A stretch of 420 nucleotides of DNA from a phage. The DNA lies in the sequence record MW984356.1; one strand, written 5' to 3'. The notes beneath the pieces are model-generated. The model was not told the origin of the DNA. It did not search any database and saw only the letters and a program-made list of their open reading frames with translations. Below are positions 1-420 of the stretch, piece after piece (position 1 is the first letter of the stretch; the number at the start of each line of letters is the position of its first letter). The translations under genes and the position numbers were made by a program.

Positions 1-45
1 GTTTTTTCGCAAAATTCTTTAGTGGTACCTTTCTATTCTCACTCT
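1..45 (+). other. C-terminal part of the pIII signal (leader) peptide, ending at the leader-peptidase cleavage site ...PFYSHS; residues upstream of the KpnI site differ from the canonical leader
   Basis: Seen in sequence: 22-45 encodes V V P F Y S H S (GTG GTA CCT TTC TAT TCT CAC TCT), identical to the engineered M13KE leader end as I recall it. Positions 4-21 encode F S Q N S L where the canonical vector has L F A I P L. Established knowledge: cleavage occurs after SHS. Confidence 0.8.
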
Positions 46-420
46 GAGCCTTGGGTGCATTTGAATTATTGGGTTAGTAGGGGTGGAGGTTCGGCCGAAA
101 CTGTTGAAAGTTGTTTAGCAAAATCCCATACAGAAAATTCATTTACTAACGTCTGGAAAGACGACAAAACTTTAGATCGTTACGCTAACTATGAGGGCTG
201 TCTGTGGAATGCTACAGGCGTTGTAGTTTGTACTGGTGACGAAACTCAGTGTTACGGTACATGGGTTCCTATTGGGCTTGCTATCCCTGAAAATGAGGGT
301 GGTGGCTCTGAGGGTGGCGGTTCTGAGGGTGGCGGTTCTGAGGGTGGCGGTACTAAACCTCCTGAGTACGGTGATACACCTATTCCGGGCTATACTTATA
401 TCAACCTCTCGACGCTGCCC
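1..420 (+). CDS. gIII: Partial CDS (both ends outside the window) of phage M13 gene III minor coat protein pIII, as an engineered N-terminal peptide-display fusion (leader - 12-mer - GGGS - mature pIII N1 - Gly linker - start of N2)
   Basis: Seen in sequence: frame +1 (codons at 1-3, 4-6, ...) has no stop codon over all 140 codons. From 94 it translates to AETVESCLAKSHTENSFTNVWKDDKTLDRYANYEGCLWNATGVVVCTGDETQCYGTWVPIGLAIPENEGGGSEGGGSEGGGSEGGGTKPPEYGDTPIPGYTYIN. Established knowledge: this is the N-terminus of mature M13 pIII, recognised from memory and not database-checked. Confidence 0.93.
24..29. other. KpnI/Acc65I recognition site (GGTACC), the 5' cloning site of the display vector
   Basis: Seen in sequence: GGTACC at 24-29 inside the leader codons GTG GTA CCT. 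Established knowledge: wild-type M13 has GTT GTT CCT here, so the site is an engineered vector feature. Confidence 0.85.
46..81 (+). other. Synthetic randomized library insert: 12 NNK codons encoding the displayed peptide EPWVHLNYWVSR
   Basis: Seen in sequence: codons GAG CCT TGG GTG CAT TTG AAT TAT TGG GTT AGT AGG; every third position is G or T, with no stop or amber codon. The insert sits exactly between the leader end (TCT at 43-45) and the GGGS spacer (82-93), the insertion point of Ph.D.-type libraries. Confidence 0.9.
82..93 (+). other. Engineered Gly-Gly-Gly-Ser spacer between the displayed peptide and mature pIII
   Basis: Seen in sequence: GGT GGA GGT TCG at 82-93, immediately followed by GCC GAA ACT (A-E-T, mature pIII residues 1-3). 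Established knowledge: this spacer is absent from wild-type M13 and characteristic of the M13KE display design. Confidence 0.88.
92..97. other. EagI recognition site (CGGCCG), the 3' cloning site of the display vector
   Basis: Seen in sequence: CGGCCG at 92-97, spanning the TCG GCC G junction of spacer and mature pIII. Established knowledge: the site is engineered; wild-type has TCC GCT GAA here. Confidence 0.85.
94..294 (+). other. pIII N1 domain (mature residues 1-67), which mediates TolA binding during infection; includes four Cys that form two disulfides
   Basis: Seen in sequence: translation AETVESCLAKSHTEN...WVPIGLAIPEN, with Cys codons at 112-114, 199-201, 229-231 and 250-252. Established knowledge: N1 domain boundaries and the C7-C36 / C46-C53 disulfide pairing of g3p. 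Confidence 0.85.
295..351 (+). repeat. Native glycine-rich linker G1 of pIII, encoded as a tandem 15-bp repeat (three full units plus a 12-bp partial), peptide EGGGSEGGGSEGGGSEGGG
   Basis: Seen in sequence: units gagggtggtggctct (295-309), gagggtggcggttct (310-324), gagggtggcggttct (325-339) and gagggtggcggt (340-351). All are in frame +1 and coding. Confidence 0.9.
352..420 (+). other. N-terminal part of the pIII N2 domain (F-pilus binding); the last ~15 nt deviate from canonical M13
   Basis: Seen in sequence: 352-405 translates TKPPEYGDTPIPGYTYIN, matching pIII. Codons 406-420 give L S T L P where canonical M13 has P L D G T..., consistent with a missing C in the C-run at 405-407 plus further mismatches. 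Confidence 0.75.

Follow-up and report, generated by a model that had tools for sequence, protein, structure and literature searches.

Organisation of the gene III reading frame

The window, by which we mean the whole stretch of 420 nucleotides analysed here, is open across all of its bases in frame 1, and the translation of that frame, VFSQNSLVVPFYSHS-EPWVHLNYWVSR-GGGS-AETVESCLAKSHTENSF...GYTYIN..., passes from the pIII signal peptide through a short insert and a spacer into mature pIII. The earlier note had proposed that a leader end with a KpnI site, 12 NNK codons, a GGGS spacer, an EagI site and mature pIII follow one another at this locus, and all of these elements are indeed present, in the claimed order and in a single frame (Table 1). 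The leader is represented by window 22-45, which encodes VVPFYSHS, and the mature protein starts at 94 with GCC GAA ACT (AET...); the EagI site at 92-97 overlaps both the last spacer codon and this mature-protein start.

Table 1. Features of the 420-nt window, with strand and supporting observations
Feature	Position	Strand	Remarks
Degraded read end over pIII signal-peptide codons	1-16	+	Expected ...TTATTATTCGCAATTCC
Gene III signal-peptide 3' end, ...(P)LVVPFYSHS	17-45	+	0 mismatches to the rebuilt clone; ends at the cleavage site after Ser18 (TCT)
Engineered KpnI/Acc65I site GGTACC	24-29	.	Single occurrence in the window; 1611 T>G and 1614 T>A, silent, Val11 and Val12
Insert read as randomised, 12 NNK codons, peptide EPWVHLNYWVSR	46-81	+	Not in wild-type M13
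GGGS spacer GGT GGA GGT TCG	82-93	+	Identical to the oligo spacer (PMC4871350)
Engineered EagI site CGGCCG	92-97	.	Single occurrence in the window; GCT to GCC (1635 T>C, Ala19, silent)
pIII N1 domain, residues 1-67	94-294	+	Equals 1G3P residues 1-67; equals JX412914 except at position 124
M13mp-lineage marker, T for C, CCC to TCC	124	+	1663 C>T; Pro29Ser (precursor), Ser11 (mature)
-96 gIII primer site	178-197	-	Exact reverse complement; primer from PMC5405960
NOR751 primer site	235-257	-	Exact reverse complement; primer from PMC5405960
Glycine-rich linker G1, residues 68-86, EGGGS repeats	295-351	+	Equals 1G3P and wild-type M13
pIII N2 domain start, residues 87-104	352-406	+	Equals 1G3P residues 87-104 and wild-type M13
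Degraded read end	407-420	+	Expected ...AACCCTCTCGACGGCACTTATCC

From 94 to 405 the window translates, with 0 mismatches and with Ser11 included, to residues 1-104 of the g3p N1-N2 structure PDB 1G3P, and the frame matches the Pfam family PF05357 (Phage_Coat_A) at E = 2e-31. The boundaries between N1, the G1 linker and N2 were set from residue numbering, and a tandem repeat at 294-351, with a 15-nt period and 3.9 copies, coincides with G1. Functionally, N1 is the TolA-binding domain of pIII and N2 is its F-pilus-binding domain. A search of Rfam at a permissive threshold returned no RNA family in the window. Two minus-strand open reading frames of 33 and 22 amino acids, both antisense within gene III, were dismissed as chance occurrences.

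The two ends of the window are ragged, and gapped alignment to the rebuilt M13KE clone described below resolves what happened there. Within positions 1-16 one base is substituted, an A run has gained 2 bases and a C run has lost 1, while at positions 407-420 a CCC run is 1 base short and is followed by six unalignable bases. The degradation looks equal at both ends, and on the strength of this alignment we read it as base-calling errors typical of read ends; such errors had been anticipated by the earlier note, and they are confined to these two segments. The read also continues far beyond the sites of the -96 gIII and NOR751 primers, and therefore another primer made it. A third exact reverse-complement match, on the minus strand at 110-131, is to what we take to be the sequence of the -28 gIII primer; all three primers are customary choices for sequencing gene III.

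Comparison with M13KE and wild-type M13

The reference for this comparison was a reconstruction, assembled from wild-type M13 (JX412914), the M13KE gene III substitutions (PMC5405960 S1 Table) and the KpnI-EagI cloning oligo (PMC4871350); it was thus built from published differences and not taken from a deposited M13KE file. When the window was compared with the rebuilt clone without gaps, 0 mismatches were found over 17-406 outside the 36-nt insert, and the comparison was garbled at the 5' and 3' ends only. The description of the window as an engineered gene III fusion of the M13KE / Ph.D.-12 type is borne out by this result, as is the claim that the 36-nt insert is the only non-vector information, the rest of 17-406 being identical to the rebuilt clone. 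The earlier note had further expected the flanks at 22-45 and 82-400 to align to M13KE gene III. They do align, although those limits were drawn slightly too narrowly, the exact match extending over 17-406.

A three-way alignment of the window with M13 JX412914 and NC_003287 places every departure from the wild type. Between the ragged ends (17-406), GTT GTT has become GTG GTA (GTT GTT CC to GTG GTA CC), which creates the KpnI site; the Ser18 codon has changed from TCC to TCT (CTCC to CTCT); 48 nt, comprising the 36 nt and GGTGGAGGTTCG, are inserted precisely where the signal-peptide codons end and those of the mature protein begin; GCT has become GCC, which creates the EagI site; and at window 124 CCC has become TCC (Pro29Ser). 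There are no further differences from wild-type M13 in this interval. Near-identity outside 46-81, with KpnI, EagI and GGGS differences as in M13KE, was what the earlier note had foreseen for such an alignment, and this is the pattern that emerged.

The published record accounts for these changes. According to Zygiel et al. 2017 (PMC5405960 S1 Table), 1611 T>G and 1614 T>A in gene III are both silent, form the KpnI site and are specific to M13KE; 1632 C>G and 1635 T>C, again both silent, form the EagI site of M13KE; and 1663 C>T (Pro29Ser) is found in M13mp18 and M13KE and not in wild-type M13. Of these listed M13KE/M13mp18 changes the window has four, all but 1632 C>G. M13KE is a descendant of M13mp19, and the peptides of the Ph.D. 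libraries are placed between its KpnI and EagI sites, which flank the junction of signal peptide and mature pIII (PMC5405960). For cloning into M13KE, Brinton et al. 2016 (PMC4871350) give the oligo GTACCTTTCTATTCTCACTCT(XXX)nGGTGGAGGTTC, the opposite strand carrying GGCCG, and both the TCT codon and the spacer sequence of the window are those of this oligo, whose flanks are identical at window 40-45 (...CAC TCT) and at 82-93 (GGT GGA GGT TCG). The leader flank of M13KE is GGTACCTTTCTATTCTCACTCT (PMC4871350, PMC3038132), whereas wild-type M13 has GTTGTTCC...CTCC at the leader position.

Three known sequences come close to the window, and they can be distinguished by what they share with it. 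In the Ph.D.-12 library an NNK 12-mer is joined via a GGGS linker to the pIII of M13KE (PMC7160927), and a clone of this kind has the same leader with KpnI/Acc65I, the TCT codon for Ser18, 12 NNK codons, the GGTGGAGGTTCG spacer and EagI, together with the same Pro29Ser M13mp allele and the same -96 gIII and NOR751 primer sites; within 17-406 it does not differ from the window at all, and only the 12-mer EPWVHLNYWVSR is clone-specific. Empty M13KE agrees with the window in its gene III sequence and in the KpnI and EagI changes, but its leader is followed at once by TCG GCC (1632 C>G), without insert or spacer, where the window has TCT and 48 extra nucleotides. Wild-type M13 (JX412914, NC_003287) presents the signal peptide, N1, the G1 linker and the N2 start in the same order, and JX412914 is identical to window 97-406 except at T124, yet both restriction sites and the 48-nt insertion are missing from the wild type, and the TCC (Ser) of the window is CCC (Pro) there. 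At this codon 29, natural fd has CCT.

The window also touches on a difference between M13 stocks. Position 198 is C (GAGGGC), as in the 'Rutgers' wild-type M13 JX412914, and T in the RefSeq M13 NC_003287, a silent polymorphism between stocks; it is because of this C that JX412914, rather than NC_003287, is the best natural match.

Searches of natural phages and public assemblies

We looked for the arrangement in natural sequences at several levels. A megablast search against 50,697 phage records returned 33 Ff-type records (M13, f1, fd and relatives), which match only window 91-414, in gene III, at 97-99% identity. A query coverage of 80% was reached by 0 of the phage records, window 1-90 was covered by 0 of the 33 natural Ff records, and a more sensitive blastn search of 17-140 against the phage records again produced alignments from window 91 onward only. 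Over window 91-140, none of the 33 Ff records came within fewer than 3 mismatches.

The junctions themselves were equally absent from the larger collections scanned. The full junction pattern, the right junction and the left junction each gave 0 exact matches in the IMG/VR viral contigs; the right junction gave 0 in 185,579 species-representative genomes and 0 in the JGI metagenome contigs; and the junction region matched nothing among the plasmids and complete E. coli genomes searched. As a positive control we used a degenerate pattern able to match the wild-type leader as well as the engineered one, and this pattern matched one viral contig, three genome contigs and 0 metagenome contigs. All four of these matches are wild-type, reading GTTGTTCC...CTCC GCT GAA with no insert. 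Indeed, in every copy of natural gene III recovered, ...SHS is joined directly to AETVES, where the window has 16 extra codons between them. The KpnI-insert-GGGS-EagI arrangement occurs in 0 natural Ff records and in 0 contigs of the collections scanned, and the view that it is not a natural one stands.

Several public assemblies drew our attention in their own right. Contig JPUP01000080.1 ('SAR11 cluster bacterium PRT-SC02' contig_430), deposited as part of a single-cell genome, shares about 98% identity with Ff phage along a 2.9 kb stretch (317-3249), and at about 2513-2521 it carries the M13mp-lineage Pro29Ser allele (AAATCCCAT); given this combination of identity and allele, the contig looks like contamination by an M13mp cloning vector and not like a marine inovirus. 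Two short actinomycete whole-genome shotgun contigs, NZ_JBEZFS010000163.1 (Nonomuraea sp. NPDC048916; 1-125) and NZ_JBFAYQ010000168.1 (Streptomyces sp. NPDC051776; 660-790 and 112-638), each contain a 5' fragment of an fd-type gene III that breaks at ...TTTAGATCC/GGCCAAGC. The Streptomyces contig also matches a sequence that in one plasmid includes a TEM beta-lactamase gene, and the matching sequence recurs, with identities reaching 100%, in many small plasmids of unrelated hosts. Both contigs are probably fragments of laboratory vectors that have found their way into the assemblies. Fragments of Ff-derived cloning vectors thus seem to be present in some public 'genome' assemblies, and vector-like gene III matches in environmental data need a contamination check.

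The insert and the identity of the window

The insert consists of the codons GAG CCT TGG GTG CAT TTG AAT TAT TGG GTT AGT AGG, in frame and with no stop, and the third base is G or T in 12 of 12. If each third base is G or T at a rate of 0.5, the chance of such a run is 2.4e-4; it rises to 3.9e-3 at 63%, the rate of G or T third bases in the 116 flanking vector codons. We take the consistent G/T endings, as they stand in the sequence, to be an NNK signature of the kind carried by the Ph.D.-12 library. The exact 36-mer has 0 matches in viral contigs, blastn of window 40-100 against the phage records gave no match at E up to 10, and a full-text search of roughly 8 million papers found neither the peptide EPWVHLNYWVSR, nor three substrings of it, nor the insert's first 21 nt.

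Overall, we are all but certain that the window, positions 1-420, is a single sequencing read from gene III of a recombinant M13KE phage, given as the sense strand, and that the 12-mer which this phage carries is a random one from an NNK library. It represents about 400 nt, in gene III only, of a vector of ~7.2 kb, whose lacZ-alpha insert and remaining M13KE markers lie beyond its limits. The clone most probably stems from the Ph.D.-12 library of New England Biolabs; an NNK 12-mer library made in-house in M13KE would give an equal sequence, and a selected clone and a naive one would look alike.

The closest competitor keeps the vector and changes only the origin of the insert: a 12-residue peptide or epitope would have been designed and then placed between Acc65I and EagI, with no random library involved. 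Designed inserts are routinely cloned with exactly these flanks (PMC4871350, PMC3038132), and the flanks therefore do not discriminate between a designed and a random insert. The insert itself is more informative: a run of 12 codons all ending in G or T would be a coincidence in a designed sequence (P about 0.004 at the vector rate, or 0.0002 at a rate of 0.5), the pattern fits NNK synthesis and not codon optimisation or a fragment of a natural gene, and neither the 36-mer nor the peptide has a match in the viral contigs, phage records and full-text literature searched. We therefore consider a designed insert improbable. A different pIII display system, either a phage vector of the fd-tet/fUSE5 type or a pIII phagemid, would be more improbable by far. 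Such systems also place their fusions at the junction of signal peptide and mature pIII, and the N1-G1-N2 sequence of gene III is common to all of them. fUSE5, for example, has SfiI sites and an fd backbone. Codon 29 of the window is, however, the M13mp allele TCC and not the CCT of fd, and there is a single GGCC in the whole window and so no SfiI site as a fUSE5-type vector would have; moreover, the KpnI and EagI changes specific to M13KE are present, and the native leader ...SHS immediately precedes the insert.

A natural origin is the least credible reading of all. It would require an Ff-type phage with a natural insertion of 16 codons at the N-terminus of its attachment protein, and in its favour natural M13, f1 and fd share 98-99% identity with the pIII part. 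Against it, the changes give rise to a pair of 6-base cloning sites that exactly bracket the insertion, and they coincide with documented changes introduced by Kunkel mutagenesis, the insert is NNK-coded, the first 90 positions are covered by none of the natural Ff records, and the junctions were not found in the environmental and genome collections scanned. We give this origin only a negligible chance, and a natural or new biological system can be regarded as effectively excluded.

The preferred reading, a clone from an NNK library in M13KE, comes with a well-understood mode of action, since the mechanism of M13KE display is established vector knowledge. Consider a phage carrying this gene III. 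Its pIII precursor would be exported and cut by signal peptidase after ...SHS, and all five pIII molecules at the virion tip would then begin with EPWVHLNYWVSR as a free N-terminus, separated from domain N1 by GGGS. Infectivity would be kept through N2, which would engage the F pilus, and N1, which would engage TolA. In this way the displayed peptide would be linked to its coding DNA, and panning could enrich for binders, which sequencing of the region would then identify.

What the peptide binds is a separate matter, and the target of EPWVHLNYWVSR cannot be inferred from its sequence. We suggest, quite tentatively, that it may be an as yet unpublished binder, either an affinity-selected ligand or a target-unrelated one. 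The peptide has two Trp, one Tyr and one His among its 12 residues, and by a binomial estimate its aromatic residues are in only mild excess over the NNK expectation. Peptides rich in aromatic residues often bind plastic.

Regardless of how the peptide was obtained, the window is a known engineered construct of no biological novelty, and the insert of 36 nt is the sole information that it holds beyond the vector. Its value is thus one of housekeeping only: the window should carry a synthetic or vector label and be left out of searches for new natural systems.
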